Source of the DNA: Candidatus Altiarchaeales archaeon
Lineage (GTDB): Archaea; Altiarchaeota; Altiarchaeia; IMC4; SCGC-AAA252-I15
Reading direction: 5' to 3'
DNA length: 64,000 nucleotides
Assembly (NCBI GenBank): GCA_014727915.1
Contig: WJMO01000006.1
Span: 130,137-194,136 of the forward strand
Shown here: positions 3,888-55,705 of the stretch, piece by piece
Layout of the letters: the number at the start of each line of letters is the position of its first letter
How positions within the stretch are numbered: the stretch's first letter is position 1
Made by a program: the position numbers and the translations under genes
Notes under the pieces: generated by a model
Told to the model about the DNA's origin: nothing
Seen by the model: only the letters and a program-made list of their open reading frames with translations
Database searches by the model: none

Positions 3888-4778
3888 TCAGGGGTGGGTG
3901 ATGAATTGTATGCTTATGCCCAGTAGGAAGGCCAATATGGAGAGTGTCATGGTGAACACTAGGATTCGCTGGTTCACGTTGGGTTCTGTCCGGAAGCTGG
4001 CGAGTATTATGAAGTCTGTTACGACTATGACTATCCCATACAACAGTTCGTTGAATCCTACTGTGGGCGATAGTATGGGGGTTAGGCTTAGTGCTACTGC
4101 CGTGGCGGCTGCCAGGAAGGCCGCTCCCTTAGCCTTTTTCACCCCGTATTTTATGGGAAGGGTGGTGCTGTATGCTTTTTTGTCGCCTTCCAGGTCTTCG
4201 ATGTCCTTCACCACTTCCCTGGAGAGAGTGAGTGCGAAAGCGCATGAAGCGAGTATGACCGCGAGTTTCACGCCGTCGGGGTTCACCCAAACCCCGGGGG
4301 TCTGGGCTGAGGCAGCACCGTATATGAAAACCGAAGCCACAAGATAGCTGATTATAAGGTTGGAGGCCAGCAGGAGTCTTTTGCTGTATACAGCGTAGAC
4401 TATCAAGACGGAAGTGTTGAAAAACGCTATTAGAAAGCATATTGTGTTTATGGACTTTGCAACGCCCAACCCGATTAGGAACATTGCGAACGCCAGCATT
4501 AGCGCGTCGCTCTTGCTTATCCTGTTGGAGGGTAGGGGACGCGAGGGTTTGTTAACCTTGTCTATATCATAGTCGAAGTAGTCGTTCAACGCGTTCCCAC
4601 CTCCCAGTATCAGGGCTGCGGACACCGCGGCTGCTAGGACGTTCCACTGAGGTATCGGAGCCCCCGAAGCGAATACCACCGCTCCCAGGTATACGCCCGA
4701 GAAAGCTATCACCGCGTTTCTGAGGCGTATGAGGTCTAAAAGAGTCTTCAGACGACCTAGGAATCCGTTCAGTTTCAC
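3888..4778 (-). CDS. UbiA-family prenyltransferase, probably digeranylgeranylglyceryl phosphate synthase
   Basis: 296 aa, multi-TM; NALNDYFDYDIDKVNKPSRPLP (NDxxDxxxD) motif. Confidence 0.7.
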   Translation of the reverse strand: MKLNGFLGRLKTLLDLIRLRNAVIAFSGVYLGAVVFASGAPIPQWNVLAAAVSAALILGGGNALNDYFDYDIDKVNKPSRPLPSNRISKSDALMLAFAMFLIGLGVAKSINTICFLIAFFNTSVLIVYAVYSKRLLLASNLIISYLVASVFIYGAASAQTPGVWVNPDGVKLAVILASCAFALTLSREVVKDIEDLEGDKKAYSTTLPIKYGVKKAKGAAFLAAATAVALSLTPILSPTVGFNELLYGIVIVVTDFIILASFRTEPNVNQRILVFTMTLSILAFLLGISIQFITHP

Positions 4779-8181: not shown

Positions 8182-8682
8182 ATGGAGATAAGCCAGGCCT
8201 CCGAGGAGGACAGGAGAGGAATCTACAGGCTGTATGAGCAGTTCAACCAGGACCGGGAGGAATCAGGGGCTGGGAGGCTTGGTTTCAAGTATTTGGACGG
8301 TGATTCGCCGTGGGCGGAGGAGCTCACAGACGACGAGTGCGTAACACTAGTGGCAAGGGAGAAGAACATCGTCTTAGGATTCATAACCATAAGGATACCC
8401 AGGTTCAACCCGTTCAGGAAGATAAAAAAGCTGGGGGAGGTCGACTTGATAGTGGTTGAGAGAAAGCTCAGGCGCAGGTCGATCGGGACCAACCTGTTCA
8501 AAAAGGCAGTCAAGTTACTGAAGGGAAAGCATGTCTCCCATGTGCTTTTGAACGTTAAGGTGGGGAACAAGGCCGCGCATTCTTTCTGGAAGAAGATGAA
8601 GTTCAAACCCATGACAGAGTCCATCTATGAGAGGAAGGACGGCGTCGAGGAGGGCCTGATATACATGATCAAGAAGATATAA
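8182..8682 (+). CDS. GNAT-family N-acetyltransferase
   Basis: 166 aa; acetyl-CoA-binding-like motif RRRSIGTNLFKKAV and GNAT-like layout. Confidence 0.65.
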   Translation: MEISQASEEDRRGIYRLYEQFNQDREESGAGRLGFKYLDGDSPWAEELTDDECVTLVAREKNIVLGFITIRIPRFNPFRKIKKLGEVDLIVVERKLRRRSIGTNLFKKAVKLLKGKHVSHVLLNVKVGNKAAHSFWKKMKFKPMTESIYERKDGVEEGLIYMIKKI

Positions 8683-8706
8683 AAAAAAGTGTTTTGGGGT
8701 GTTTTT

Positions 8707-8892
8707 TCAGGTTTCTTCCTTTTTTCGCGGCCTATGCAGTATTATCTTCCCGTTCACGGGTACTGCGTCGACTAGCACTGTTACGGTGCCGTTTCCGTCG
8801 AATGCCACCCCAATGTTCGTCCATCTGTCTTTTCCTGTTTCAGGGTCTGTCACAACCGTGCTAGCCCTCCAGTCAGGTGTCTGTCCTTTCAT
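8707..8892 (-). CDS. Hypothetical small protein
   Basis: 61-aa ORF with non-repetitive composition; could be co-transcribed with 8955..9254. Confidence 0.3.
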   Translation of the reverse strand: MKGQTPDWRASTVVTDPETGKDRWTNIGVAFDGNGTVTVLVDAVPVNGKIILHRPRKKEET

Positions 8893-8954
8893 TTTCTAAA
8901 AGACAATTCACTAGATGCGGAAAAAAAGAGGGGCCTAGAGCAGTGGAAAAGTTA

Positions 8955-9254
8955 TTAGTGGTGTTCTTCCCCTTGGTAGTCGGGATGGTGTTCTCCCCAG
9001 TATTCCTTCTCCCATTCCTCGTGTTCAGCCTCCCTTTGCTCCTTCTCCTCCACAGCCTTCTGAAAAGCCTCCGAGTCGGACAGGCCAGAAGTAAAGTCCA
9101 TGGCAGCACCGTGGAACACCAGCATCGCCACCAGCAAAACCAGGAATATCCCCGCGGCTATGGACAGTGATATCAAACCCAGCGCCAGCGCCAACATTAC
9201 CCCGACCGAAGTCGCCAAAACGGCCACGATAGAGACTCCAAGCTTGGATGCCAT
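8955..9254 (-). CDS. Small membrane protein with acidic His-rich tail
   Basis: 99 aa, two predicted TM helices, C-terminal EHEEWEKEYWGEHHPDYQGEEHH. Confidence 0.4.
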   Translation of the reverse strand: MASKLGVSIVAVLATSVGVMLALALGLISLSIAAGIFLVLLVAMLVFHGAAMDFTSGLSDSEAFQKAVEEKEQREAEHEEWEKEYWGEHHPDYQGEEHH

Positions 9255-9294
9255 GTAAGGATATTGTATTGAAGTAATAAGTAGGTTTTTAGTG

Positions 9295-10251
9295 TCATAT
9301 AAGGCCTAATAGCTTGCCCATGAAGAAAACATAGAAGAGGGTGAGCATCCACCCCTCCCACATCGTTACCTGCTTGTCCTGAACGATAAAGAAGGCGAGG
9401 ACTGTCGCTACCAGCATCAGGGGTATCCCCAACGCCAGCATCGACTCTGCAATAGCCAGGGTGCCGAACAAGCCGGACACCCCCATGACCAGGAACGAGT
9501 TGAATATGTTGCTCCCGAGTATGTTGCCCAAGGCCAGCTCTGCCTTTCCCTTCCGGGCCGCTGTGCAGGATACCGTAAGCTCGGGAAGACACGTGCCCAA
9601 TGCTATCGCACTCGCTGCCAGAACCCCCTTCCCTATGCCGAGGAACTCTGAGAGCACGACAACGGATTCGATTGTGTACTTCGCGCCCACGTAGATGAAC
9701 AACGCGCTCAACGCCAATGTCACCCACGTGAATTGCGTTATCCTGACCTTCTTGGCCTCCTTCTCCAGCTCCTTGACTTCGGGGCTCTTCTTCCTCTTCT
9801 CAACCGCGAAAGTATAGCCCACATATATCAAGGCACCTGCGAGGGACAGGAAAGCCTCCGGCCGGGTGAAGACCCCATCGTAGGACATCAACGCCAGGAG
9901 GAAGGCTGAGGCTGCGAATATTGGAAGGTCAACGTGTATCACCTCGAAGGTAACGTCCATCTTCTTCGCCAATATGGCGACTATGCCGAGTATTAGGAAT
10001 ATGTTCGCGATGTTGGAGCCGACCACCGTGCCGGAAACTATCTCCGAGCTGCCGTTTAGGACCGCTATCACGGATGATACCATCTCGGGCAGGGATGTGC
10101 CCACGCTGACTATCGTGACACCCACTATGAAGGCGGGAACACCGTAGAAAAGGCCTATCTTCTCGGCTGCGTCAGTGAAGTGCTCCGAAGATTTCACAAG
10201 AACGAAAAGGCTCGAAGCGAACACAACAACCCACAACAGCAGGTCTAGCAT
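9295..10251 (-). CDS. Na+/Ca2+ exchanger family (CaCA) antiporter
   Basis: 318 aa; two alpha-repeat signatures GTSLPEMVSSV and GTCLPELTVS. Confidence 0.8.
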   Translation of the reverse strand: MLDLLLWVVVFASSLFVLVKSSEHFTDAAEKIGLFYGVPAFIVGVTIVSVGTSLPEMVSSVIAVLNGSSEIVSGTVVGSNIANIFLILGIVAILAKKMDVTFEVIHVDLPIFAASAFLLALMSYDGVFTRPEAFLSLAGALIYVGYTFAVEKRKKSPEVKELEKEAKKVRITQFTWVTLALSALFIYVGAKYTIESVVVLSEFLGIGKGVLAASAIALGTCLPELTVSCTAARKGKAELALGNILGSNIFNSFLVMGVSGLFGTLAIAESMLALGIPLMLVATVLAFFIVQDKQVTMWEGWMLTLFYVFFMGKLLGLI

Positions 10252-10282
10252 GATTAATAATCGGGAGACAATAAAATATACG

Positions 10283-11380
10283 ATGGAAGAGGGCTCGGCA
10301 GCGGGTATTTTTCGCGTCTTCTATGATGTGATCCTGAGACCAGGGGAGACCTTGCGCCTGCAAAAGGGGCGTTCCACCTGGAAGAAGGGTTTAACCGCCC
10401 ACTTGGCCGCGGCTGCGGTGATGATATTCTTCCACCTGCACAGGCTGCTATATTTCGAGGATGGGCCCAGCGCATTGGTTGGGGTTTCAGCTTTCGCAAT
10501 GGCATATCTGGCATATTCCTTTTTGCAGCTTTCAGGGGTCTTGATAGCCCATCTTATCTCCAGATTGTTCGGGGGGCGGGGTAGACTTGTTGAGATGCTC
10601 TGGCTGACTGGAACCTATGCTGTGCCCTTGGCTTCCGCAGCCGTTGCCGTGGGAATGCTATCCAATATGTCACTATGGTTCATGGCCATAAACATACCTC
10701 TCCTGGCCTTCGCACTGTGCCTTGACATGATCGCCATAGAGGAAGCCCACGGTCTTTCAAGACCCAAGAGCGTTGGTGCTGTGTTATCTTCTTTCCTGAT
10801 GAAGTTCATAATATTCGCTATGGTAGCGTTCTCCGCGTACTCTGCCAGCCTTATGGCATTAAATTCGGGTTTCATGGGTTTGGACCGTGCGGTGAACGCC
10901 AACAACGTGGAGATATTGGATGTCGGTCAGGCATCGGATACGATAGAGTCTGGGGGATTGGCCTTCCACATGCCAGGGGGGTGGGTCGCGGATAGGGATT
11001 CCAAGGCCCTGAGACTGTTCGGTTACAGGTACTACGTGAAGGGCGATGCTGTTATTATGATTGCGGAGGGAGGCATCATCAGCGGGCTCCTTCCAAGTGA
11101 CGGTCAAGAGTACACTGGCGAATCCTGCAGGTCCATCGAGTTCGGCATGGCCTCGGAGCCGGGGGTGAAAGCAGCCGAGTACGTGGAATACGGGCTAGTT
11201 AGGGGTTGTGAGGCGAGGATGCCCGGGGGGGACGGCGGGGTGCAGATAATATTCCAGGGTGTTGTCTGCGAAGGCCATCCGATAACTTTGACAGTGGTAG
11301 CCCCGGACGACTCCAGCATTTCCAGCGAGGAGGCGGTGTCAGACTACCTGGATCTCATGGAGAGCATATCGTGCGTGTGA
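10283..11380 (+). CDS. Membrane protein with C-terminal soluble domain, hypothetical
   Basis: Track ORF starts at 10175 but overlaps the divergent CaCA start; ATG at 10283 or later is more plausible; several TM helices. Confidence 0.45.
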   Translation: MEEGSAAGIFRVFYDVILRPGETLRLQKGRSTWKKGLTAHLAAAAVMIFFHLHRLLYFEDGPSALVGVSAFAMAYLAYSFLQLSGVLIAHLISRLFGGRGRLVEMLWLTGTYAVPLASAAVAVGMLSNMSLWFMAINIPLLAFALCLDMIAIEEAHGLSRPKSVGAVLSSFLMKFIIFAMVAFSAYSASLMALNSGFMGLDRAVNANNVEILDVGQASDTIESGGLAFHMPGGWVADRDSKALRLFGYRYYVKGDAVIMIAEGGIISGLLPSDGQEYTGESCRSIEFGMASEPGVKAAEYVEYGLVRGCEARMPGGDGGVQIIFQGVVCEGHPITLTVVAPDDSSISSEEAVSDYLDLMESISCV

Positions 11381-11419
11381 AGGTCTGCTTTTAACCATTT
11401 CAACCAAATTATTACTAGG

Positions 11420-12214
11420 ATGGCAGTTGAAGGTCAAGGCCCCGGCGGAGGAGGCGGAGGTCAGGAGCCCATGGTAGAGAGATGCCCCACGGGGATAGAA
11501 GGGCTTGATGAGCTGATCGAAGGCGGACTGCCCAAAGGCAGGGTTGTGCTGTTAGCAGGGGACTGCGGGACGGGCAAGAGCATATTCTCCACACAATTCC
11601 TCTACAACGGGGCTGTGAATTACAACGAGCCGGGGATACTGTTGAGCCTTGAGCAGACTCCGGTAAACCTCAAAAAGGACGCCCTTAACATGGGCTTCGA
11701 CCTGGACGCGCTTGAGAGGCAGGGGAAGCTGGTAATAATCGATGCGAGCCTGTCGGGGCTTGCGTTCAGGAAGTTCAACCGAAAGTACACCATAAGCCCG
11801 CAGGAATTCAGCCTCGACAAGGTGATCGCCCTAATAAACGAGTCTGTCCAGCAGATAGGTGCCAAGAGGGCTGTGGTGGACAGCTTCAGCGCTTTGGAGA
11901 CCGTCTTGGAGGCCAGCTCCGCAAAGGGCGGTGACATACAGGAAGACCTGCGGAAGACCATCGTGGGCATAAACTACAAGCTCCAGAACATGAACCTCAC
12001 ATCATTGCTCATAGGGGATATGATAGGCGGCCAGATAAGCAGGTACAACATAGAGCAGTTCATGGTGGACGGTGTGATAACGCTCGACTATGTCACAGCC
12101 GGGGCTGACGCCGGCAGGCACCTTGTAATCCAGAAGATGCGGGGCACCAAACACAGCGAGAACATACACATGATAGACATAGAGCAGGGTAAGGGCGTCA
12201 TAGTCAAGGGCTGA
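11420..12214 (+). CDS. KaiC/RadA-like RecA-superfamily ATPase (single domain)
   Basis: PTGIEGLDELIEGGLPKGRVVLLAGDCGTGKS Walker A in KaiC-type context. Confidence 0.7.
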   Translation: MAVEGQGPGGGGGGQEPMVERCPTGIEGLDELIEGGLPKGRVVLLAGDCGTGKSIFSTQFLYNGAVNYNEPGILLSLEQTPVNLKKDALNMGFDLDALERQGKLVIIDASLSGLAFRKFNRKYTISPQEFSLDKVIALINESVQQIGAKRAVVDSFSALETVLEASSAKGGDIQEDLRKTIVGINYKLQNMNLTSLLIGDMIGGQISRYNIEQFMVDGVITLDYVTAGADAGRHLVIQKMRGTKHSENIHMIDIEQGKGVIVKG

Positions 12215-26115: not shown

Positions 26116-26985
26116 ATGGTGGATGACAGTATCAGAGAAGACATCCTGAAAGCCCAGGAGAACGAGATAACGGAGTACCTCATCTACAGGAGACTTGCGG
26201 AAGCCACCAGCGACCGGAAAAACAGCGAATTGCTTAGGAGGATAGGCGAGGACGAGCTGGCCCACTATGAATTCTGGCGAGATCACAGCGGAGAGGACGT
26301 TAAACCCGACACGTTCAAGGTGTGGCGATACACCATGGCCGCTAAGCTGTTGGGTCTGACGTTCGCGGTGAAGCTGATGGAGCAGGGTGAGGAACGGGCG
26401 CAGATAGCATACGATGATATCTCAAAGCACATCCCAGAAGCTGCTAGGATAATCGAGGAGGAGGACGAGCATGAAGGGCAGCTGCTGGGCATGTTGGACG
26501 AGGAGAGGCTGAGGTACATGGGGTCTGTCGTGCTGGGACTGAACGACGCCCTCGTGGAGTTGACCGGCGCACTGGCAGGGTTCACACTCGCCTTCCAGGA
26601 CAGCAGACTAGTTGCTGTTACGGGTTTGATAATGGGTTTCGCGGCGTCGCTTTCCATGGCAGCCAGCGAGTACCTGGCAACCAAGTCGGAGGATGATGGC
26701 AAACACCCGGTTAAAGCCTCGGTGTACACCGGCTCCGCTTATGTGCTGACCGTGGCGCTTCTGATACTGCCCTACCTAGCATTAACCAACATCTACCTGA
26801 GCCTGGCGTTCACGTTGGTGAACGCAATCCTGGTGATCGCGTTCTTCACATTCTACATCTCAGTCGCGAAGGACCTAAGCTTCAGAGAGCGGTTCCTGGA
26901 GATGGCGGGCATCAGCATGGGAGTGGCCCTGCTCACCTTCATAATCGGGTACGCTGTAAGGTCCGTGTTCGGAGTCGACTTCTAA
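26116..26985 (+). CDS. VIT1/CCC1-family Fe/Mn transporter with N-terminal ferritin-like domain
   Basis: Ferritin-like (E...EDEHEGQ) N-terminus fused to VIT1-type TM domain. Confidence 0.7.
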
Positions 26986-29426
26986 AACTTTTTGATCTTC
27001 GCCCTCCGCAGCATGTTCGCGTTGGTCACCACCGTTATGGAGCTGGTCGCCATGGCAATCTCGGCTATCACCGGATGGGCCAAACCAAGCACCGCCGCCG
27101 GCAGGGCTATAAGGTTGTAGAAGAACGCCCAGAAGAGGTTCTGCTTGATCTTGGAGAACGTAGCCCGCGAAAGTTTAACTGCCGTGACAACCGACGACAG
27201 TTCCCCGCGTACGAGAGTCACGTCCGCTGCTTCGATCGCTATGTCCGTGCCGGTCCCGATGGCTATGCCGACGTCAGCTTGGGTAAGTGCTGGGGCGTCG
27301 TTTATGCCGTCGCCGACCATCGCTACAACACCGCTCTCCCTCTGCAACCTCTTTATCTCATCTACCTTGCCGTCTGGCAGGACCTCCGCCAGAACACGTT
27401 CTATGCCCGCCCTCTCAGCTATGGCCTCAGCGGTCCTCTGGTTGTCGCCGGTTATCATTGCAGGCTCCAGTCCGAGAGCCTTCAGCTCGGCTATGGCCTC
27501 CACCGAGTCCTCCTTCAATGTGTCGGCAACCGCGATAACACCAGCCAGTTCACCGTCCACCGCGACGAACATGGCGGTTTTAGCCTCTCCCTCGAGCCTC
27601 TGGACCTCTTCGACCGCAGGATAAACGTCAACGCCCGCATCGGACATGAGACGCCGGCTGCCAACGTGAACCACCTTCCCGCTGACCTCTGCCCGGACTC
27701 CCTTGCCGGACACGGACTCGAAGCCGGTGATGTCCCTGAGTTCCGCCGAATCCGCCCGGGCCTTCTCTACTATCGCCTCGCCCAGAGGATGCTCCGAGCC
27801 GGACTCGACACTGGCCGCAAGAGAAATCAAACCACCAGCCCCGCCGTTAAATGGTATCACATCGGTCACCTCGGGCTTTCCCTTGGTTATGGTGCCGGTC
27901 TTGTCGAATACTATGGATCTAACGTCCTTCAACGCCTGCATGGCAGCGCCATTCCTTATTAGTACTCCGTTCTCAGCCCCCATCCCACTGCCGACCATCA
28001 GCGCCGTGGGGGTCGCGAGGCCGAGCGCGCAAGGGCATGCGATCACAAAGACCGCCACAGTGGCGAATACCGCGAGAGAAACCGAATCGTGAGTCAAGTC
28101 AACCCAAGGAAGATAATCCTGGAGGAGGCCTGCGCCGACCTTCATTGTGCCGGGAAACAGCATCCAGGAGGAGAAAGTCAGCAACGCCACAACCACCACT
28201 ACCGGCACGAACACGCCAGTGACCCTGTCTGCGAACTCCTGTATCGGCACCTTCGTTCCCTGAGCCTCCTCGACCATGCGGATGACATTAGCAAGGAACG
28301 TGTCCTTACCCACCCTGGTGGCTCGGACCTTCAAAAGGCCGTTCTGGTTCACCGTCGAACCAATGACCTCATCGCCTGCGTTCTTGGCGACCGGCATGGA
28401 CTCTCCCGTGGCCATGCTCTCGTCCACGGAACTCGAACCGTCGAAGACCACCCCGTCAGTTGGTATCTTCTCCCCCGGGCGGACGACCATGACATCACCC
28501 ACAGCAACATCCTTCAGCTGAACCTCTTTTTCAACCCCGTCAACGATTACACGGGCCGTCTTAGCCTCCAGTTTCAATAGCTTCTTGATCGCCTGGGACG
28601 CCCTGCCCTTCGCCCTCGCCTCAATGTACCTGCCGGTGAGGTGGAAGCTCATTATCATCGCCGAAACACCAGCGTAGTTCAATATGGGAGTGAAAAGAAC
28701 CGCGACACCCGTGAGATACGAAGACAATGTCCCCATGGCTATGAGAACGTCCATGTTGCCGCTACCATGCCGGACCGAGTTCAAGGCGCTCTTGTAGGTG
28801 GAGGAGCCGGCCCACGCGAGGACGGGAGCCGCCAACACGACCATTCCAATGTTGAACACCCGCATGTTGGGCCATGCTACCCCAATGAACATCTCGGGGA
28901 TCATCCACACCATTATCGGGACCGTGAACGCCCATGCGATGAACGCCCTCCTCCGCGCCTCGGAGTATTCGCCATCCTCGTCCTCTTCGACTTCCTCGTC
29001 TTCCACTACCTCGAAGCCAGCCGCTTCAACAGCCGATTTAAGCTCATCATAGCCGACCTTGACAGGGTCATAGTTGACGGTCGCCCTTTCGCTCGCGAAG
29101 TTCACGACCGCATCCACACCATCCAGTTTTTTCAGAGCATCCTCGGTGTTCTTGGCGCAGCTAGCACAGTGCATCCCCTTGACCTTGAAGGTTAATTTTC
29201 GATTGTCAGCTTCCTCCACGTCGTAGCCCGCGTCTTCAACGCGCTTCCTGATATCTTCCCCTCCGACCTTGTCAGGGTCGAATTCGACATATGCCTTCTC
29301 AGAGGCGTAGTTGACATTGGCGGATGAGATGCCATCCAGCTTCTTCAACGCCTTCTCTATGTTAGCGGCGCAACCCGCACAGTGCATTCCCTTAACCTTG
29401 AACGACTTCTTCATCATCTTATCCAA
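26982..29426 (-). CDS. copA: Heavy-metal (copper-type) P1B-type ATPase with two N-terminal HMA domains
   Basis: GMHCAGCA and GMHCASCA metal-binding motifs, [22 protein letters not shown]. Confidence 0.9.
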
Positions 29427-29430
29427 CCCC

Positions 29431-30054
29431 TTAATAGAATCTGACCCCCTCTTTTAAATCGTCTTTCTCGATGGTCACGAAACCATCCTCCACAGCATGC
29501 GGAAGATATGCAGGCCAGCAACCTCCTCCACGGTTCATCCCGCCCAAATCGTCTATCCTGAAGTGCCTTCCGCAGTTCACGCATTTCACGTCGGAACCAA
29601 CTTGTGCGTATCCCTTGGATCCTCCGCAGACTTCGCAGGCGTCGAATGCGGTCCTAACCTCTCCGTCACTTCCCAAGACCACGAGATACCTTATCGTCTC
29701 GCCTCCGAAGTCAAAGCTGTATTTGCCGATCTGAGAGGATATCTCAGACAAGGGTATCCTGACCACACTATCATCAGAGCCGATAGCAGACTGGGAGTCA
29801 GACCCGGATACAACACTCCCAACAACATCAGAGACTGCATTTGACTCTTCCGCTCTAGGAGCGTCATTTCCCGACCCACCGGACAAAACCGCGAACGCGG
29901 CCGCCAGGACGACCAAGCCTAACAGCAGGTGTGCGCTGCCAAAACCTCCACCTCCATCAACCGATGCCTGCCCGCCGGATTCTTCTGACACTCTCACGCT
30001 ACCGCTCTTAGATGCTCGCCCTCTATTTTTCTCCCTTTTTCCCTTTCTTGCCAT
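29431..30054 (-). CDS. Membrane-anchored protein with CxxCG...CxxCG zinc-ribbon-like motif (DUF2318-like?)
   Basis: TM helix then DACEVCGG...CVNCGRHF; start probably ATG 30054. Confidence 0.45.
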
Positions 30055-30058
30055 TTTA

Positions 30059-30421
30059 TCATTCACCAGTAAACCCGGCACCTGGACCTATGCCACAGCT
30101 GCCCTCTTCGATGTCTCCCTTGCACTGGGGGCAGACTTCATCGAATCTTCTCTGGGCTATCATCTCATCGCACCTGCATATGCCGTCATCCCAAAGCCAA
30201 TGCCCCATGAAGCACATGTCACACACCGGGCTGATACAGCACTTGTACTCCCCGGACTCAACCTTCTCGGCTATCAGAGAGTTCACCTCATCCAAGGCAT
30301 TAGCCCGCCTAACCTGGTAGCTGTCAGGATAGGGCGGGTTCCCGCCTGAAGAGTATGCCAGAATGGATGATATGCCTATCACCGCCGCCAACGCGACAAG
30401 TCTCTTATCCACCGGCACCAC
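30059..30421 (-). CDS. Secreted/anchored Cys-rich putative metal-binding protein
   Basis: Signal/TM then CCISPVCDMC...CRCDE...CPQCKG...SCG (11 Cys in ~60 aa). Confidence 0.45.
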   Translation of the reverse strand: MVPVDKRLVALAAVIGISSILAYSSGGNPPYPDSYQVRRANALDEVNSLIAEKVESGEYKCCISPVCDMCFMGHWLWDDGICRCDEMIAQRRFDEVCPQCKGDIEEGSCGIGPGAGFTGE

Positions 30422-31073
30422 CCAGCTCTGAGCCTATCACTTCCCGGAATGCGCTCATCGGCTGGGCGCCGACTACCTTCTGCCCGCCTATGAAGAACGT
30501 CGGGGTCCCGGACACCCCCCGGCTCCTTCCTTCTGAGATATGGCTTTCCACCAGCGACTCCTTCGAGCTGGAGTCCAGGCACCTGTTGAACTGCAACCTA
30601 GCTAACCCAAGGTCAGAGGCTATGGACTTCAGGACATCCGAGTCTCCGACATCATAGCCTGAACCGTGCCTTTCGAAGAGCATGTCATGGTATTCCCAGA
30701 ACATGCCCTGGTCCCTGGCGCACTCAGCGGCCTCGGCAGCCTTGTCAGCGCCCCTGTGAAAGGAGAGGGGAAACTGCCTGAAAACAACCTCAATCCGGCC
30801 CTCATACTCTTCACGTATCTGGTTGACAGTGGTCGCAGCCCTCGCGCAGTAGGGGCATTTGAAGTCGCTGTAGACGACAACCTGCAAAAGACCCCCACCG
30901 CCTGAATCAGATGCAACCACGGCATTAGGGGGCGACTGAACGCCCTCAGCCGGGGGTGTTTCTGATGGCTGCAATAGCGCGTATGCAGCCACCGCGAACA
31001 ACACGGCGATGACGACGCTCAACGCCAGTATGTTATTCCCACCGCAGCAACCGTCTGATCCTTCCCGTTTCAT
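30405..31073 (-). CDS. DsbA-like thioredoxin-fold thiol:disulfide oxidoreductase, membrane-anchored
   Basis: CPYC active site; start probably ATG 31073 overlapping upstream stop. Confidence 0.7.
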   Translation of the reverse strand: MKREGSDGCCGGNNILALSVVIAVLFAVAAYALLQPSETPPAEGVQSPPNAVVASDSGGGGLLQVVVYSDFKCPYCARAATTVNQIREEYEGRIEVVFRQFPLSFHRGADKAAEAAECARDQGMFWEYHDMLFERHGSGYDVGDSDVLKSIASDLGLARLQFNRCLDSSSKESLVESHISEGRSRGVSGTPTFFIGGQKVVGAQPMSAFREVIGSELGGAGG

Positions 31074-32356
31074 CTTCCACCTCCGCATCCGCAACCGCAT
31101 CCGCCGCCACCGCATGAACCGCCACATGAGCCCCCACCTGGGACCTCGATGGTCTCAACCGCCTCTGCAACAGCAGCAGGGTCCTCGATGTTTATGTCTT
31201 CTTTTACCACGAAAACCCCGGGTATCATCCCCATCCAGCAGCTCCAGGGTATAGTACCAGAATCGTCTGGCGTGAACTCGATCGTCTGCAAACCGGGTTC
31301 TATGTCGAATTCCAAACCTAGCTTGGGCACCTGTATGGCGTTGTTACATCCGTTTATCTCCTTGCCGTCTATTACCCACTTGACTGGAACCCCCCTTTTC
31401 AGAACGAACTTGTCCGGCTTCCAACCGTACCGGTTCACCTCCATCTCTATTACCTGGTAGCCGCCTTCAAGCTCCAATGAGAGGTTGCCTGGGTCGTCTT
31501 CCATCGCCTGAGCCGACACAAGGATGGTGTTGAAGTCCGCTCCCGTGCCAGTCAACGCCAACCCCCGGTTCACCATAACCAGGCCCAACAGTATAACTAC
31601 TACCCCAGAGTAGCGAACTATCTTATGGGTCATCCTGGAGCTAACCACCGATGTCAAAACCCCGAAGCCGAGCAGGACAGGTAGTGTGCCCAACCCGAAC
31701 ACTGCAAGGTATAGAGCGCCGTGGACTGGACTGCCAGATGATGCTGCCAGTATGTACACCGCCTGCAGTGGGCCGCAGGCTATCATCAGCCCGTTCAACA
31801 ATCCGATAACCGCGGGGCTCCTGCTCTCATTCTCCTTTTCAGACCGCCACCTGTCTATGAACGAGGGCATTGTAAGCCTGAAGCGACGGAACCATTTCAT
31901 CATTCCCAGCATGTTGAACCCGAACAAAACCAGGAACAAACCCGCGAGTATGGCCGCCGCACCCCGCATGAACGGGGTGAAAGTGAAGAAAGACCCTATG
32001 AAACCGAATACGGCACCGAAGAACGCGTAGGACACTGTCTTGGACAATCCATACGTTAGGTGGGAGCCGTAGTTGATACGCCCGTCCGCGGCCTCCTTGG
32101 CAGAGTAGCTTACCACAAAACCCCCACACATGGCAACACAGTGGAAGCCGGTCAGCAGGCCTATTATGAACAGCAACATTATTGAAGTGTCACTGTCCAA
32201 TGAGGGCATGTACACGCCAAAGCTCTCATGAAGCATATAGTATCCCCCGGCGAGGATGGCCAACACACCCAAAACCACGGAGACGTTCTTCAAGTCCGCA
32301 GTTGAAAACGCTATCCTTCTGTTGATATTAGAATTTTTCATGTTTATCCAGAGCAA
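31070..32356 (-). CDS. DsbD_2/CcdA-like transmembrane domain fused to cupredoxin-like domain with Gly/Cys-rich tail
   Basis: TM Cys pair GFHCVAMCGGF; C-terminal beta-rich domain; tail GGGSCGGSCGGGGCGCGCGGGR. Confidence 0.55.
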   Translation of the reverse strand: MLWINMKNSNINRRIAFSTADLKNVSVVLGVLAILAGGYYMLHESFGVYMPSLDSDTSIMLLFIIGLLTGFHCVAMCGGFVVSYSAKEAADGRINYGSHLTYGLSKTVSYAFFGAVFGFIGSFFTFTPFMRGAAAILAGLFLVLFGFNMLGMMKWFRRFRLTMPSFIDRWRSEKENESRSPAVIGLLNGLMIACGPLQAVYILAASSGSPVHGALYLAVFGLGTLPVLLGFGVLTSVVSSRMTHKIVRYSGVVVILLGLVMVNRGLALTGTGADFNTILVSAQAMEDDPGNLSLELEGGYQVIEMEVNRYGWKPDKFVLKRGVPVKWVIDGKEINGCNNAIQVPKLGLEFDIEPGLQTIEFTPDDSGTIPWSCWMGMIPGVFVVKEDINIEDPAAVAEAVETIEVPGGGSCGGSCGGGGCGCGCGGGR

Positions 32357-32397
32357 CTAGGATGAAACAATATAAGCCAACATAGGTGAAACTGGTT

Positions 32398-32871
32398 TCA
32401 TTTAAGGACCACTATGTTTGTCAGGCCTCTCCTACGCCTCTCTAGCAGGTTCTTGGACTCCAGCCGGTCCAGGTTCCGGGTTACCTTAACCTTTGACAGC
32501 CCGGTCTTCTCGGATATCTCACTCTGGAAGATTGTGCCTCCAGAGTCTGAGATCAGCTGGTAGACTGTCTTCTCATCCCCATCCAGGCTTCCGAGGTTCT
32601 CCAGCCACTTCTCCCTGCCTGAAGGCTCCTGATCCAATCTGCCGCCCTTCAAAGCCAGGTATATGCCGATGAAGAACAGTATCACGACACCAGCCAATCC
32701 GCCATAGAAGACGGGAGGGACCTTGAAATGGATCATCTCGCAGCTTTCCCCGCAGGTGCAGGACTGGGTGCTCATATCGGCGAGAGTGTCTAGGAGAACT
32801 GACAATAACGCCACCAGAAAGACCGCCAATAGTATCAGCACAATCCCTACTTCCCGCAATCCGGCCCTCAT
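32398..32871 (-). CDS. Membrane-anchored wHTH regulator with CxCxxxC motif
   Basis: TM - STQSCTCGESCEM - TM - C-terminal wHTH (KTGLSKVKVTRNLDRLESKNLLERRR). Confidence 0.55.
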   Translation of the reverse strand: MRAGLREVGIVLILLAVFLVALLSVLLDTLADMSTQSCTCGESCEMIHFKVPPVFYGGLAGVVILFFIGIYLALKGGRLDQEPSGREKWLENLGSLDGDEKTVYQLISDSGGTIFQSEISEKTGLSKVKVTRNLDRLESKNLLERRRRGLTNIVVLK

Positions 32872-32877
32872 CTTAAG

Positions 32878-33726
32878 CTAAACCCATTCCTCCCTTAGCT
32901 TTTCTCCTTTTATGCTTATTACCGCCGATTTCACAGGCACCTTCCGCTGAGCCCTTTCAACAGCCTCTTTCGCCATCTGCAGCAGCCCAGTGCAGCATGG
33001 GACTTCCATTGTCACCACCGTGAGCGTGTTTATCCCGGCGTCATCAATGAGTGAAACGAGCTTCTCCACGTACGTCTGCTGTTCGCTGTCCAGTTTCGGG
33101 CAGGCTATCGCCAGCCGCCTTCCCTTCAAGTACTCACCGTGGAAGCGCCCGTAAGAGTATGCCGCACAATCAGCCGACAACAGCACGTCAGCGCCCTTGA
33201 AGTAAGGTGCCAAAGGCGATACCAGGTGCATTTGGACAGGCCACTGCCTCAGCTGCGAGGAAACCTCACCAACCACTTTACCCACTACCTCCGGGTCATG
33301 GGAGAAGTCCATAGTCCTGGCTCCCGGGCAGCCCCCCGCAGACCCTGAGCAAGGCGTCTCAGGTGCTGCGGTTTCCGGGACCTCCAAACCCTTATCCTTC
33401 AGGAATCCGACAGCCTCGTTGTAGTATCCCATCTCCCCATGATCTCTCAGATGTTCAAGGTGGGCTTTTATCGTGTTATAGCCCTGCTTGACGATGTTCT
33501 CCATGACCCTGCGCTCATCGTAGGGTTCCGCCTCCCGCTCGACTATGTCTATCGCGCCTTCGGGACAGTGTCCCATGCAGGCTCCGAGCCCGTCGCAGAA
33601 GAGGTCGCTGACCAGCCGGGCCTTGCCGTCTATCATCTGCAACGCTCCCTCGGGGCAGTTGGGTATGCACAAGCCGCACCCTGTGCACTTGTCCTCGTCT
33701 ATCTCGATTATGCTACGCTTTACCAT
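32878..33726 (-). CDS. 4Fe-4S dicluster-domain protein with additional Cys-rich C-terminal domain
   Basis: CTGCGLCIPNCP and CDGLGACMGHCP ferredoxin motifs; C-terminal CAAY...CPKL...PCCTG. Confidence 0.65.
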   Translation of the reverse strand: MVKRSIIEIDEDKCTGCGLCIPNCPEGALQMIDGKARLVSDLFCDGLGACMGHCPEGAIDIVEREAEPYDERRVMENIVKQGYNTIKAHLEHLRDHGEMGYYNEAVGFLKDKGLEVPETAAPETPCSGSAGGCPGARTMDFSHDPEVVGKVVGEVSSQLRQWPVQMHLVSPLAPYFKGADVLLSADCAAYSYGRFHGEYLKGRRLAIACPKLDSEQQTYVEKLVSLIDDAGINTLTVVTMEVPCCTGLLQMAKEAVERAQRKVPVKSAVISIKGEKLREEWV

Positions 33727-33737
33727 GTTGTATCCTC

Positions 33738-34085
33738 TCAGCCGAACACGAAGGCTGATAGTGTGGGCAGCAGCAGGTACAAGACCATCAACGTCAGAGA
33801 GACATAGGTGACTATGCTAACAGCCACCATCGTCCTATGGGCTTTGACGTCGTTCAAGGTGCATGTGCCGCCGCACTGCCTTTTGATCTTGAAGTAGAGG
33901 GACAAGAGCATGAAAACCGTGCCCGCCGCTATGAAGAAGAGCTTATACCTTGGAAGCTTCAATGCTGCGGTCATGCTCCCAGCCCCCAATGTCCCGAATA
34001 TCATGACCAGTATCAGGGGCAGCGTGCAGCAGCTCGACGCTATGATCGTGGCCTTCACCCCCGTCCAGAATCCCTTCAATCCCAT
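33738..34085 (-). CDS. MerT-like heavy-metal transport membrane protein
   Basis: 115 aa, 3 TM; vicinal Cys pair in TM1 (ASSCCTLPL) and loop Cys pair (CGGTC). Confidence 0.5.
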   Translation of the reverse strand: MGLKGFWTGVKATIIASSCCTLPLILVMIFGTLGAGSMTAALKLPRYKLFFIAAGTVFMLLSLYFKIKRQCGGTCTLNDVKAHRTMVAVSIVTYVSLTLMVLYLLLPTLSAFVFG

Positions 34086-34348: not shown

Positions 34349-34375
34349 CTAGCAGCAACCGCATCCTGGACCCAT
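34349..34375 (-). other. Candidate 8-codon Cys-rich mini-ORF (MGPGCGCC) with strong Shine-Dalgarno
   Basis: GGAGGTGA 5 nt upstream of ATG; followed by a T9 run and then the ATG of 34076..34309. Confidence 0.3.
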
Positions 34376-34458
34376 AAAGCTCACCTCCAAAGATTATAGT
34401 TACTTTTTAACACTATATGTTGTGTTCTTTGAATAAATAGGTGTTGGTAACCGGATTG

Positions 34459-42783: not shown

Positions 42784-42875
42784 ATTCCATTCACCTCACA
42801 ACATTTGTTGGTTGCTTACATCTAAGGTGGAACAGCATAAGAGCCTACGCCGGAAAACGGCGGAAAACCGCGGAA

Positions 42876-43559
42876 CTAGTTCAACTTCACCATGGCGCTC
42901 ATCCCGACCCGCCTCTTCTCGACAACGCCCATGCCCTCGAGTGTGTCTATGTTCCGTGACACGCTGGACTTGGGCAGGTTCAGCTGCTCACATATCTCCG
43001 CCTGGTTCACGGGAGCATTCCTCTCCCTGAGGAACTCGACTATCATCCTCTGCCTGTCGGTGAGCATACGATCGTCAAAGCCAGCACCTGCCTTGGAAGG
43101 CCTCCACCATAGATACATCACCGCAGAGGCGGCAGCCAACAAGGCTATGACGGCAGCATACAGTGTGCTGTTGTCAGGTGAACTTTCACGGCCGATGGTG
43201 TACTGGACCAGGACATTGAAGGGCTCATCCTCCCCAACCCCCGACACCTTAACCCTCCCATCCTCGGAGGATATCCTGAAGCCCCGGGGGGACATGGCAT
43301 AGTTGACTTCCGCCCCTTCGGGCAGCTTGACAGAGTACACGTACTCGGTGAAATCACCGTCCAAGCTGATGTTAAGCAGCCAGTAGCCGCCGCGCTTGAA
43401 CGTGTACTGGTCGTAGACCCCGTCAGCCAGCAGGGGGTGGTTGCTGGTGCCAGATATTGTAGCGGCTCCAGACCCGCTGACATCAAATGATACGTCAGCG
43501 TAGTAGGCCTCGGCCGAGGCGAAACCAACCAATAAGATGAAAAGCAAAACCCGCTTCAT
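42876..43559 (-). CDS. Membrane-anchored wHTH regulator with extracytoplasmic domain (paralog family)
   Basis: Signal peptide (start probably MKRVLLF at 43559), external beta-rich domain, TM, C-terminal wHTH. Confidence 0.55.
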   Translation of the reverse strand: MKRVLLFILLVGFASAEAYYADVSFDVSGSGAATISGTSNHPLLADGVYDQYTFKRGGYWLLNISLDGDFTEYVYSVKLPEGAEVNYAMSPRGFRISSEDGRVKVSGVGEDEPFNVLVQYTIGRESSPDNSTLYAAVIALLAAASAVMYLWWRPSKAGAGFDDRMLTDRQRMIVEFLRERNAPVNQAEICEQLNLPKSSVSRNIDTLEGMGVVEKRRVGMSAMVKLN

Positions 43560-43719
43560 CGTGGAGAATATATATGCCAGACATCCTCTTAAAGGCATAA
43601 GCCACAACCGACAGTTAAAATTATTTATAATATTTTCAAAATAATTTAAAATTTTACATTAATACTTTGTCTTCCATGTTGGGCTGGCCGGTATTTTTAT
43701 TCCCTGTTCCCATGAGTTC

Positions 43720-54701: not shown

Positions 54702-55211
54702 CTATTGTTTAGTTCCTGCCGGTTGGCCTTCTGCAAAAGGGCATCCACCGCCCCGCATACCCCTACCAGGAAATCCACCCCCCATCTTCCCGGGGCATTT
54801 ATCCGGGTTCTCCTGGCAGTAGGCATGGTGGGCCTCCATTATCTCCTCGTGTGTGGCGTCCTCGCCGAGGCCGAGCTTGGATAGCATCTCACTGTGCCTT
54901 TCCTCCATCTCCTGGTGGCGTTCCTCCATACGGGCCTTCACTGCAATATGGAACTCCCCTATCGTATCGTCCTCGGTCAGGCCGAGGTCGGATAGTCTCT
55001 TCTCCCACATGGCTTCTCTTATCTCTTCTCTCGTAGCATCTTCCGTAAGCCCGAGCTCCTCCAGGTTCACAGGCTCATGTCCTTTCATAAACCCGTGTCT
55101 GGAGAATCCCTTGCTTCCCCCTGCCGCTTCCGTTGCGTTGACGGCCACCACCAGTCCTAGGACCAGCAGTGCTGCCAAGCCAGCGGCAAACAGTTTGGTT
55201 TTACCATCCAC
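54702..55211 (-). CDS. Secreted protein with three LGLTED(A/D)T..EEI repeats and Gly-rich tail
   Basis: Signal peptide; GTG start preceded by GAGGTGA. Confidence 0.5.
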   Translation of the reverse strand: MDGKTKLFAAGLAALLVLGLVVAVNATEAAGGSKGFSRHGFMKGHEPVNLEELGLTEDATREEIREAMWEKRLSDLGLTEDDTIGEFHIAVKARMEERHQEMEERHSEMLSKLGLGEDATHEEIMEAHHAYCQENPDKCPGKMGGGFPGRGMRGGGCPFAEGQPAGTKQ

Positions 55212-55239: not shown

Positions 55240-55289
55240 TGAAACAGGGCATAAGTTTGGATGAAACAGTTGTGGCAGAAGATGAAACA
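55240..55289 (+). promoter_or_regulatory. Triple TGAAACA direct-repeat array (R2)
   Basis: TGAAACA at 55240, 55262, 55283 (spacing 22, 21), 30-80 nt upstream of GTG 55211. Confidence 0.55.
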
Positions 55290-55294
55290 TGACT

Positions 55295-55705
55295 TTAAAG
55301 CTTCAGCTTGACGAGGTTGGTGTTTCCCAGGGGCTTCTTCTCAACGACACCCCGTTGCTCCAGCTTGGACAGGACCCTTGAGACCTTCACCTTGGATATT
55401 CCGGTCTCTGCAACGAGGTACATCTGCTCCATCTTGCCCTCCTTCAACAGCACCTCTATTATCTTCCGCTCCTCAGCGGGCAATACCTTCAGCATCGAGT
55501 AGGCCTGCCTCTGGGTCACCTTCCACTGGAACATTAGTATTATCAGAGCTCCAACACCCATGGAGACAGCTGTCACCCCGTAGACCACCACAGGCATGGA
55601 CGAGCCGGTGTCTTCAATGTAGGACCCGTTAAGTATGGACAGTAGTATCCCCAAGCCGAACACTGACGTTAATGCTATCGCTAACCGCTTCTCCGAGACT
55701 TCCAT
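55295..55705 (-). CDS. Two-TM membrane-anchored wHTH regulator (paralog family)
   Basis: Two TM helices then wHTH (ETGISKVKVSRVLSKLEQRGVVEKK). Confidence 0.55.
   Translation of the reverse strand: MEVSEKRLAIALTSVFGLGILLSILNGSYIEDTGSSMPVVVYGVTAVSMGVGALIILMFQWKVTQRQAYSMLKVLPAEERKIIEVLLKEGKMEQMYLVAETGISKVKVSRVLSKLEQRGVVEKKPLGNTNLVKLKL

Follow-up and report, generated by a model that had tools for sequence, protein, structure and literature searches.

We found that a gene for a membrane-tethered winged helix-turn-helix (wHTH) regulator, a palindrome that overlaps or follows its stop codon, and a downstream operon form an arrangement that is conserved across DPANN phyla. The gene encodes 157 residues and lies on the minus strand of a stretch of 64,000 nucleotides (the window) from a Candidatus Altiarchaeales archaeon (assembly GCA_014727915.1, contig WJMO01000006.1, positions 130,137-194,136 of the forward strand). 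The protein is predicted to have two transmembrane (TM) helices, an outer loop with cysteines and a C-terminal wHTH domain (Table 1). Taking all the evidence together, we consider it reasonably probable that the regulator is an uncharacterised transmembrane one-component repressor of a copper-efflux and thiol-redox operon, with the outer cysteine site probably sensing Cu(I) or thiol oxidation.

A palindrome shared by regulator loci and putative target promoters

The palindrome was found by aligning the DNA downstream of the regulator gene across Altiarchaeota loci, which revealed the sequence TGAAACTAGTTTCA with a TATA-like box and a further GTTTCA behind it. The window has the form TGAAACTGGTTTCA, which on the minus strand begins with the TGA that ends the regulator gene. 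The pattern TGAAAC-NN-GTTTCA has one exact match in the window, and the other sites with up to two mismatches, at 7255 and 33052, are intragenic or distant. About 9 nt separate the end of the palindrome from the TATA-like box, which puts the palindrome immediately upstream of the expected transcription factor B recognition element (BRE), and the third GTTTCA half-site is followed after 21 nt by the ATG (32341) of a gene encoding a DsbD_2 domain fused to a cupredoxin-like domain. A generic inverted-repeat scan of three intergenic regions, with its 30-nt distance and seed settings, returned a weak repeat (I1) only and missed this element. Since the RNA fold of the palindrome is only -0.9 kcal/mol (z 0.01), we regard it as a DNA element, and an RNA hairpin or terminator is ruled out.

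We then scanned a species-level set made of one genome per GTDB species (80 loci, 929 kb). The scan gave 62 exact palindrome sites and 85 sites with at most one mismatch, compared with 2.25 expected from shuffles, and a site with at most one mismatch was present in 68 of the 80 loci. In 38 loci the nearest palindrome was within -2 to +60 bp of the regulator stop codon; a further 17 loci had it within 800 bp, and 9 had it at a distance of 0.8-5 kb. In four loci (L002, L005, L006 and L016), iscS-nifU or other genes intervene, and the HMA gene at the head of the DsbD_2...CopA operon has the palindrome about 60 bp upstream of it. Because the site shifts to the HMA/DsbD_2/CopA operon where genes intervene, the palindrome appears to track the target promoter and not the regulator gene as such. 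A gapless alignment of 64 sites gave TGAAACTAGTTTCA-N9-tttATAag-N-tGTTTCA, and the spacer between the palindrome and the third half-site was 18 nt in 48 of 52 exact cases. Nearly all of the 80 loci are from DPANN archaea (Altiarchaeota, Woesearchaeota, Pacearchaeota, Aenigmarchaeota, Micrarchaeota, Iainarchaeota, Nanohaloarchaeota and Undinarchaeota); a few come from metagenome-assembled genomes (MAGs) labelled Methanosarcinales or Methanobacteriota, labels which may be imprecise.

In the reverse test, metagenome contigs were scanned with the composite DNA pattern alone, using no protein information, and at least 120 loci were obtained. A member of the regulator family was present in 91 of the 120 listed loci, always upstream of the oriented promoter and on the same strand, and the site was within -10 to +70 bp of the regulator gene end in 64 of these 91. 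The 29 listed loci without a regulator comprised 12 with less than 500 bp and 17 with at least 500 bp of DNA upstream of the site. The invariance of the palindrome is paralleled by a near-invariant recognition helix and wing in the regulator family. The co-occurrence of the conserved cis-element with the regulator at target promoters supports the palindrome as a candidate sequence-specific operator to which the regulator is predicted to bind.

The genes that follow the operator were also analyzed. Using tblastn with the operon proteins of the window over 88 loci that reach up to 8 kb to either side of the regulator gene, we found matches to CopA-like proteins in 50 loci, DsbD_2 in 30, DsbA-like proteins in 22 and FtrD-like proteins in 17. 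In half of the species-level loci (40 of 80), at least one of the four was encoded within 3 kb on the same strand, mostly downstream. Unbiased clustering of the neighbours, with open reading frames (ORFs) in the fetched loci called by a simple script, returned HMA/DsbD_2/CopA as the largest cluster (40 of the 80 loci), followed by four uncharacterised Cys-motif proteins and then by DUF411 (CopG-like), PadR-TRASH and ArsR genes. Among the 120 listed metagenome loci, the operator was followed by the Cop/Dsb/FtrD module in 64, by the module of four uncharacterised proteins in 28 and by DUF411 in 12; CopA-like genes followed it in 47.

Architecture of the regulator and its cysteine loop

The 157-residue protein is identical to a Candidatus Altiarchaeales MAG protein in NCBI, named 'MarR family transcriptional regulator', and has orthologues of 48-59% identity in Altiarchaeota, from which we conclude that the gene is real. 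A chance ORF is ruled out by the orthologues, the large family and the confident fold. The N-terminus, MRAGLREV, leads into a hydrophobic stretch, which is followed by DTLADMSTQS-C38-T-C40-GES-C44-EMIHFKVPP, a second hydrophobic stretch and a polar C-terminal half. C38, C40 and C44 are the only cysteines of the protein, in the local sequence S-C-T-C-G-E-S-C-E-M.

Pfam DUF7343 (PF24034) matched residues 98-156 at 2e-12, with 47.2 bits against a cut-off of 27.6 and with profile positions 3-61 of 62 covered, and the same match is precomputed for all homologues. Residues 107-147 were just above threshold for MarR_2 (30.4 bits versus 27) and MarR (26.2 versus 24.6), and NCBIfam gave wHTH matches below threshold only. 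An AlphaFold2 (AF2) model was built from a 94-sequence alignment without Met1, so that protein numbering is model numbering plus one; its mean predicted local distance difference test score (pLDDT) is 88. In protein numbering, the model has helices at residues 5-36 and 53-75 with an exposed loop (37-52) between them, then a linker, a short helix (85-93) and a canonical winged helix of the order alpha-beta-alpha-alpha-beta-beta (98-156). The recognition helix is S-K-V-K-V-T-R and the wing R-R-R-R-G-L-T-N. In the family, the recognition helix and the wing pattern R-R-R-G-x-T-N are invariant or almost so, with K126, V129, R131, R146, R147, G148 and N151 as the invariant wHTH residues (alignment numbering from residue 2, Met1 omitted).

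A profile search of 1.84 billion representative proteins with the regulator returned 3698 relatives at E<1e-3, of which 169 were at E<1e-30. The best-scoring 150 relatives listed were mostly 150-195 residues long, and almost all were matched over their full length. A second search gave more than 1900 clusters at E<1e-10, with names that said at most 'MarR family', 'hypothetical' or 'uncharacterized membrane protein'. As judged from these sequences, the predicted architecture of the regulator is common to a family of hundreds to thousands of proteins of about 160 residues, mostly from DPANN archaea.

The columns of C38 and C44 are invariant in the 94-sequence alignment. When 159 two-TM members of the family were compared, 157 had at least two loop cysteines (exactly two in 115 and three in 42), and 136 of these 157 had no cysteine elsewhere. 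The first and the last loop cysteine are 5-15 residues apart; the last is directly followed by proline in 113 members, and then by methionine or histidine. The position two after the first cysteine, equivalent to C40, is cysteine in 34 members and histidine in 29. C40 is kept in 12 of 12 close Altiarchaeota orthologues, all of which have C-x-C-G-x-x-C-x-M, and in a larger set an extra Cys, His or Met is present near the pair in 252 of 256 members. The frequency of histidine is 0.033 in the loop and 0.007 in the cytoplasmic part, an about five-fold enrichment in the loop. Since the C40 position is taken by cysteine or histidine in 63 of the 159 members, the invariant feature is a cysteine pair with an additional soft third or fourth ligand, and not an exact triad.

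The density of lysine plus arginine in the two-TM members is 0.226 in the N-terminus, 0.049 in the loop and 0.237 after the second TM helix. The outer loop, of 16-30 residues, is net acidic and holds the invariant cysteine pair, and the family topology is N-in, with the winged helix on a flexible tether. Based on the positive-inside rule, this charge distribution and the acidic loop, the loop is predicted to be extracytoplasmic and the wHTH domain to be cytoplasmic.

A first-pass annotation, made from the sequence of the window, had proposed that this ORF encodes a winged-helix domain tethered to the membrane, with CTCGESC between two TM helices. Pfam, hydropathy and the AF2 model bear out the tethered domain, and C38, C40 and C44 do fall in the loop between the two helices. 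The same annotation depended on a wHTH domain that is not extracytoplasmic, and the charge distribution indeed puts it inside. Its expectation of a conserved cysteine triad holds in part: C38 and C44 are invariant, but C40 is found in a minority of the family and is often replaced by histidine.

Proposed mechanism, alternatives and known regulators

Judged by comparative genomics and a model of the monomer, on which all our functional statements rest, binding of the palindrome by the regulator and control of the operon downstream are very likely. The cysteine site is likely to be the sensor, for which the conserved pair with its soft ligands and the copper/thiol regulon are indirect evidence. 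There is about an even chance that the signal is a thiophilic metal, most probably Cu(I). A repressor is somewhat more plausible than an activator.

In the mechanism that we propose, the regulator would bind the palindrome as a dimer. Since the wHTH domain is without MarR-type dimerisation helices, the TM hairpins would keep the two subunits together. The stretch T-A-T-A-A-G-N2-GTTTCA resembles a degenerate second site with the TATA box as its left half, and a second, weaker binding event may cover the TATA box and the third half-site. Given this resemblance, cooperative occupancy would exclude the TATA-binding protein (TBP) and transcription factor B (TFB), thus occluding the promoter and producing repression in the unstimulated state. 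The outer site would bind Cu(I) or another thiophilic metal through C38 and C44 plus C40 and M46, with Cys, His or Met at the extra ligand positions in relatives. Cu(I) or oxidation at this site would repack the TM hairpins, lower the DNA affinity and release the DNA. Release would turn on copper export (CopA and HMA proteins) and envelope thiol-disulfide maintenance (DsbA-like, DsbD_2 and FtrD-like proteins).

Several points weigh against this mechanism. The assignment of the operator to the regulator rests on co-localisation, and the position of the palindrome, just upstream of the expected BRE, is the classic archaeal activator position. CopA exports cytoplasmic Cu(I), for which an outward-facing sensor is not an obvious design. 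Of the three cysteines, only two extend across the family, and a conserved pair on the extracytoplasmic side might do no more than form a disulfide; the loop also has a pLDDT of about 71-76, below the rest of the model. Between about a quarter and a third of the operons linked to the operator encode the four uncharacterised Cys-motif proteins instead of CopA. Since these operons are without copper genes, the signal need not be copper and may be broader.

It was considered that the regulator may instead be a signal-dependent activator or a dual regulator, in which ligand-induced dimerisation of the loop would set a pair of wHTH domains on the palindrome to recruit TFB and TBP. We give this alternative a real chance, though one short of even. 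It would explain why the palindrome is placed where it is relative to the TATA-like box and the BRE, and it has a parallel in CopR of P. furiosus, which acts as both repressor and activator from a palindrome directly upstream of the BRE (PMC7830388). In addition, ArnR, a characterised archaeal membrane-bound regulator, is called an activator in the title of its paper. On the other hand, the third GTTTCA lies at a fixed spacing between the TATA box and the expected start site, and the TATA region itself is like a degenerate left half-site, both of which fit promoter occlusion. The position of the palindrome and the dual action of CopR upstream of the BRE thus leave the direction of regulation uncertain.

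A rather unlikely alternative keeps the same regulator and operator but takes the outer cysteine pair as a thiol-disulfide redox switch that reports envelope disulfide stress rather than as a metal site. If so, oxidants, Cu(II)-catalysed chemistry or the DsbA-like enzyme may oxidise the pair, and its reduction may run through the DsbD_2 protein; as the signal itself, thiol oxidation has a modest probability. Exactly two cysteines are invariant, 5-15 residues apart and on the extracytoplasmic side, genes for DsbA-like, DsbD_2 and redoxin proteins are abundant in the regulon, and in bacteria the transmembrane regulators ToxR, TcpP and CadC rely on periplasmic cysteine pairs as redox switches. 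However, the strongest linkage is to CopA, HMA chaperones and DUF411/CopG, and a plain disulfide needs none of the extra Cys, His and Met ligands that stand beside the pair in nearly every member.

A purely structural role of the cysteines, as a disulfide staple across the TM hairpin, seems improbable; in this reading the anchor would serve localisation, and control would be exerted by partners, proteolytic release or protein level. In its favour are the very short loop, without a recognisable sensor domain, and two paralogues in the window that have the membrane-tethered wHTH design but no loop cysteine. In contrast, the pair and its flanking soft ligands are retained across phyla while the remaining loop varies freely, and the cysteine-bearing subfamily specifically tracks copper and thiol operons.

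That the palindrome is bound by another factor or acts in the transcript, with the regulator next to it merely by synteny, is very improbable: regulator binding is predicted from co-localisation, 17 listed metagenome loci have sufficient upstream DNA (at least 500 bp) but no detectable regulator gene, and ArsR or PadR-TRASH genes occur in some loci, yet the association holds in both directions and across phyla, with the regulator always on the same strand and the site often overlapping its stop codon, the sequence itself and not just its pairing potential is conserved, and the invariant recognition helix parallels the invariant site.

The regulator was also compared with known systems. Archaeal genomes commonly encode transmembrane transcription regulators (TTRs), about 4 in each (Demey et al. 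2023, PMC10269533), and ArnR and ArnR1 of Sulfolobus acidocaldarius are archaeal examples with a helix-turn-helix (HTH) domain at the N-terminus (Bischof et al. 2019, PMC6396743). The protein fits the TTR definition of a predicted DNA-binding domain and at least one predicted TM region in one polypeptide. Like ArnR and other TTRs, it would be a one-component system that acts on DNA from the membrane through a DNA-binding domain and TM helices. ArnR reportedly has C-terminal TM helices and regulates archaellum and pilus genes. The order is reversed in the window regulator, with the TM hairpin first and the wHTH domain last, and its sensor would be a minimal cysteine loop and its regulon one of copper and thiol genes.

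ToxR, TcpP and CadC bind DNA while anchored in the membrane, and an extracytoplasmic cysteine pair modulates their activity. How a tethered factor finds its site is a problem that they share with the window regulator. However, they have an OmpR-type N-terminal wHTH, a single TM helix and a folded periplasmic domain, whereas the window regulator has the reversed order and two TM helices. Pfam gave no Trans_reg_C match in the regulator, and no sequence relationship to ToxR-like regulators was detected.

Archaeal CopR, which is encoded next to copA, binds a palindrome adjacent to the BRE/TATA of the cop promoter (PMC7830388). It is a soluble protein with an Lrp-type HTH and a C-terminal, cytoplasmic metal-sensing TRASH domain, it recognises the motif TTNNCAWWWTGNNAA, and it is apparently octameric as judged by size-exclusion chromatography and negative-stain imaging, the latter on a TRASH-deletion variant (PMC7830388). 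CopR/CopT would be the functional analogue of the window regulator, but the latter is membrane-anchored, with outward-facing cysteines and a different operator. No TRASH or AsnC-type match was found in it with Pfam or NCBIfam, which places it outside CopR/CopT. The CusS/CopS histidine kinases have a metal-sensing segment outside the cytoplasm, between two TM helices, through which copper-resistance genes are controlled. CusS/CopS are two-component systems with a periplasmic domain of about 130 residues, a kinase core and a separate response regulator, whereas in the window regulator one chain of 157 residues would combine sensing with DNA binding.

The MarR and ArsR/SmtB families share with the regulator the winged-helix fold and the HTH sequence signature; the fold matches include ArsR, CzrA, SqrR and MarR, and many MarR and ArsR/SmtB repressors are thiol- or metal-responsive. 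Compared with MarR, a soluble fold of about 140 residues, the modelled regulator is without the dimerisation helices and appears as a bare wHTH that ends at the wing. It matches the MarR profile over residues 107-147 only, the MarR dimer-interface helices are absent from the AF2 model, and the MarR fold matches in the PDB cover only 70-116 alignment columns at TM-scores of 0.34-0.39. The alpha3 and alpha5 metal sites of ArsR are absent from the regulator, which has no cysteine or histidine in its cytoplasmic domain, and the NCBIfam ArsR model NF033788 gave 19.5 bits against a cut-off of 55, which sets the protein outside ArsR/SmtB. A sequence-profile search of the PDB returned no solved relative, the best E value being 8e-4, to the wHTH domains of CodY and RPC34. 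Foldseek against the PDB returned only generic ArsR, MarR and CodY wHTH domains (E>1e-3, TM-score 0.3-0.4), restricted to the wHTH. In the literature we found no paper of relevance on DUF7343, on the palindrome or on copA/MarR regulation in DPANN archaea. Since no solved structure or paper was found for the family or the operator, we rate the subfamily as an uncharacterised variant of the known TTR class. Its members appear to be wHTH regulators tethered to the membrane, spread through the DPANN archaea, that share a distinctive cysteine site on the outside, a candidate operator and a putative copper/thiol regulon.

The genomes of DPANN archaea are tiny and are known to encode very few recognisable regulators, and there is hardly any experimental genetics for these organisms. 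The triplet of regulator, operator and regulon, which extends from Altiarchaeota to Woesearchaeota, Pacearchaeota, Aenigmarchaeota, Micrarchaeota and Nanohaloarchaeota, would be an unusually complete and testable circuit for this group. The triplet points to control of copper and envelope-thiol homeostasis in these lineages by a one-component sensor that is anchored in the membrane and faces outward, rather than by the CopR/TRASH proteins of other archaea. If true, this would be the first extracytoplasmic metal-sensing one-component regulator described in archaea. The near-obligatory position of the operator at the regulator gene end bears on target finding by tethered regulators, and the locus may, if the proposal is true, serve as a natural system, defined by its sequence, in which to study the search of membrane-bound transcription factors for their DNA. 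We tentatively suggest a DPANN-wide minimal transmembrane sensor-regulator for copper or thiols, of which this protein would be the founding example, that replaces soluble CopR and has the operator right behind its own stop codon, often overlapping it. The placement would reflect that action in cis suits a tethered factor best, since insertion into the membrane during transcription would bring the nascent regulator close to its promoter. The operator also flags the operon of the four uncharacterised Cys-motif envelope proteins as likely part of the same stress response.

The operon, its neighbours and further features of the window

The features of the regulator locus are listed in Table 1.

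Table 1. Features of the regulator, the candidate operator and the flanking genes in the window
Feature	Position	Strand	Basis
Regulator gene, 157 residues: two TM helices, outer Cys loop, C-terminal wHTH	32398..32871	-	ORF, Pfam, orthologues, AF2
TM helix 1, residues ~8-28	32788..32850	-	Kyte-Doolittle hydropathy up to 3.25; AF2 helix 5-36
Cys motif C38-T-C40-G-E-S-C44, predicted extracytoplasmic loop	32740..32760	-	Sequence and family conservation
TM helix 2, residues ~54-74	32650..32712	-	Hydropathy; AF2 helix 53-75
Predicted cytoplasmic wHTH, residues ~96-157	32401..32586	-	Pfam 98-156; AF2 elements H-E-H-H-E-E
Candidate operator, 14-bp palindrome TGAAAC-NN-GTTTCA	32387..32400	.	Exact match; overlaps the regulator TGA stop codon
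TATA-like box TTATAT, between palindrome and third half-site	32370..32375	-	64-site consensus tttATAag at fixed position; window sequence
Third GTTTCA half-site, just downstream of the TATA-like box	32363..32368	-	Exact composite GTTTCA-N18-GTTTCA
DsbD_2 membrane domain with cupredoxin-like domain and Cys/Gly-rich tail; likely ATG 32341	31070..32341	-	Pfam DsbD_2 4e-45, Cupredoxin_1
DsbA-like thioredoxin-fold protein	30405..31127	-	Pfam Thioredoxin_4/DSBA; recurs after operator
120-residue Cys-rich protein	30059..30421	-	Homologues in the same operon position in L002, L006, L012
FtrD-like (DUF2318-type) membrane Cys protein	29431..30081	-	Pfam PF10080 1e-22; recurs after operator
CopA-type P1B ATPase: two N-terminal HMA (CxxC) domains; CPC, YN(x4)P and M(x2)SS motifs	26982..29426	-	Translation
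Fer4/AF_0155-type protein, 6 bp from the regulator start	32878-33726	-	ORF and Pfam
MerT-like protein	33738-34085	-	ORF and Pfam

The five genes from DsbD_2-cupredoxin to CopA overlap or are at most 5 nt apart, with CopA last in the operon. The DsbD_2-cupredoxin gene is the first after the operator, and its homologues follow the operator in many loci. Pfam and NCBIfam gave no match for the 120-residue Cys-rich protein. The CPC, YN(x4)P and M(x2)SS motifs of the ATPase we take to indicate Cu+/Ag+ export, by the established P1B-1 classification. The Fer4/AF_0155-type and MerT-like genes (32878..34085) are probably co-transcribed with the regulator and have no operator before them; control of these upstream genes from the same site is unsupported, as no palindrome is found upstream of them in the window.

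The first-pass annotation had placed the gene inside a metal operon, which agrees with the metal and thiol genes that flank it on the same strand, including the MerT-like, Fer4, DsbD_2-cupredoxin, DsbA-like, FtrD-like and P1B ATPase genes. It had further proposed that the regulator controls the surrounding array. The conserved operator-promoter element supports a regulatory role but points to the five downstream genes, not to the whole array.

In Altiarchaeota, the regulator gene usually follows cysK-cysE-cysS and a tRNA-thiolase-like gene and precedes iscS-nifU and/or genes for HMA, HMA-DsbD_2, DsbA, Cys-rich protein, FtrD and CopA. The four-gene set found elsewhere encodes a 214-residue membrane-anchored protein with CEYCCG...ACGCAHSY, a 76-residue protein ending in GGC, a 174-residue multi-TM protein with AHCPLCTG and a 160-residue protein ending in CC-K-E. 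Many Woesearchaeota and Pacearchaeota loci have the operator before this set (L088, ~8460-11000; also L047, L048, L057, L076, L084, L086 and others). The set has no family assignment and is often followed by DUF411/CopG or a redoxin. In some Altiarchaeota loci (L003/L004 at 8533-11862, L012, L013 and L058), the operator stands before genes for DsbA-like and FtrD-like (DUF2318) proteins, an ABC ATPase, a MacB/FtsX permease and an ArsP-type permease, without CopA. This gene set resembles the thioredoxin/DUF2318/ABC module that accompanies bacterial P19-Ftr1 metal-uptake systems.

The C-terminus of the DsbD_2-cupredoxin protein (31070-31140, minus strand) ends in the Gly/Cys tail GGGSCGGSCGGGGCGCGCGGGR, and its DsbD_2 orthologues in other loci have an N-terminal HMA domain instead of the cupredoxin-like fusion. 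Altiarchaeota loci with iscS-nifU after the regulator carry a second, unrelated palindrome, TTAAC(A/G)ATTGTTAA, upstream of iscS-nifU (L002 ~1950-1975, L005 ~8530-8555, L014 ~1690-1705 and L016 ~8515-8540), presumably the site of another regulator of the iron-sulfur assembly genes.

Two paralogues of the regulator are encoded on the minus strand of the window. The first, of 136 residues (55295-55705), has two TM helices, a C-terminal DUF7343-like wHTH with the recognition helix S-K-V-K-V-S-R, and no loop cysteine. Directly behind its stop codon, at 55240-55292, the direct repeat TGTTTCATC(C) occurs three times at intervals of 21-22 bp, and a TATA-like CTTATG separates the second copy from the third; the repeats lie upstream of a gene for a secreted Cys-containing protein of 169 residues (54702-55211). 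These repeats were not found in L069, which holds the sole true orthologue of the 136-residue paralogue among the fetched loci. The second paralogue, of 243 residues (42876-43607), has a signal/TM segment, an extracytoplasmic domain of about 150 residues, a TM helix and a wHTH with the recognition helix K-S-S-V-S-R. Its TAG stop codon lies at the centre of a different palindrome, GAACTAGTTC, which is followed by a CTTATGC box and GTTCCA (region 42820-42885), a layout that echoes the operator-after-stop-codon arrangement of the regulator.

A mini-ORF, MGPGCGCC plus a stop codon (34349-34375, minus strand), with GGAGGTGA resembling a ribosome-binding site at 34381-34388, is present in the 150-bp intergenic region upstream of the small-TM, MerT-like, Fer4 and regulator genes, and may be a leader peptide or a chance ORF. 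The promoter-like sequence TTAAAAAGTAACTATAATC (34393-34411, minus strand), upstream of the small-TM and MerT-like genes, is close to GTAAAAAGTAACTATGACC in L012 (~4570-4590). In that locus GTAAAAAGTAACTATGACC lies downstream of the regulator gene, and GGTTAC/GTAAC motifs recur in several Altiarchaeota intergenic regions.

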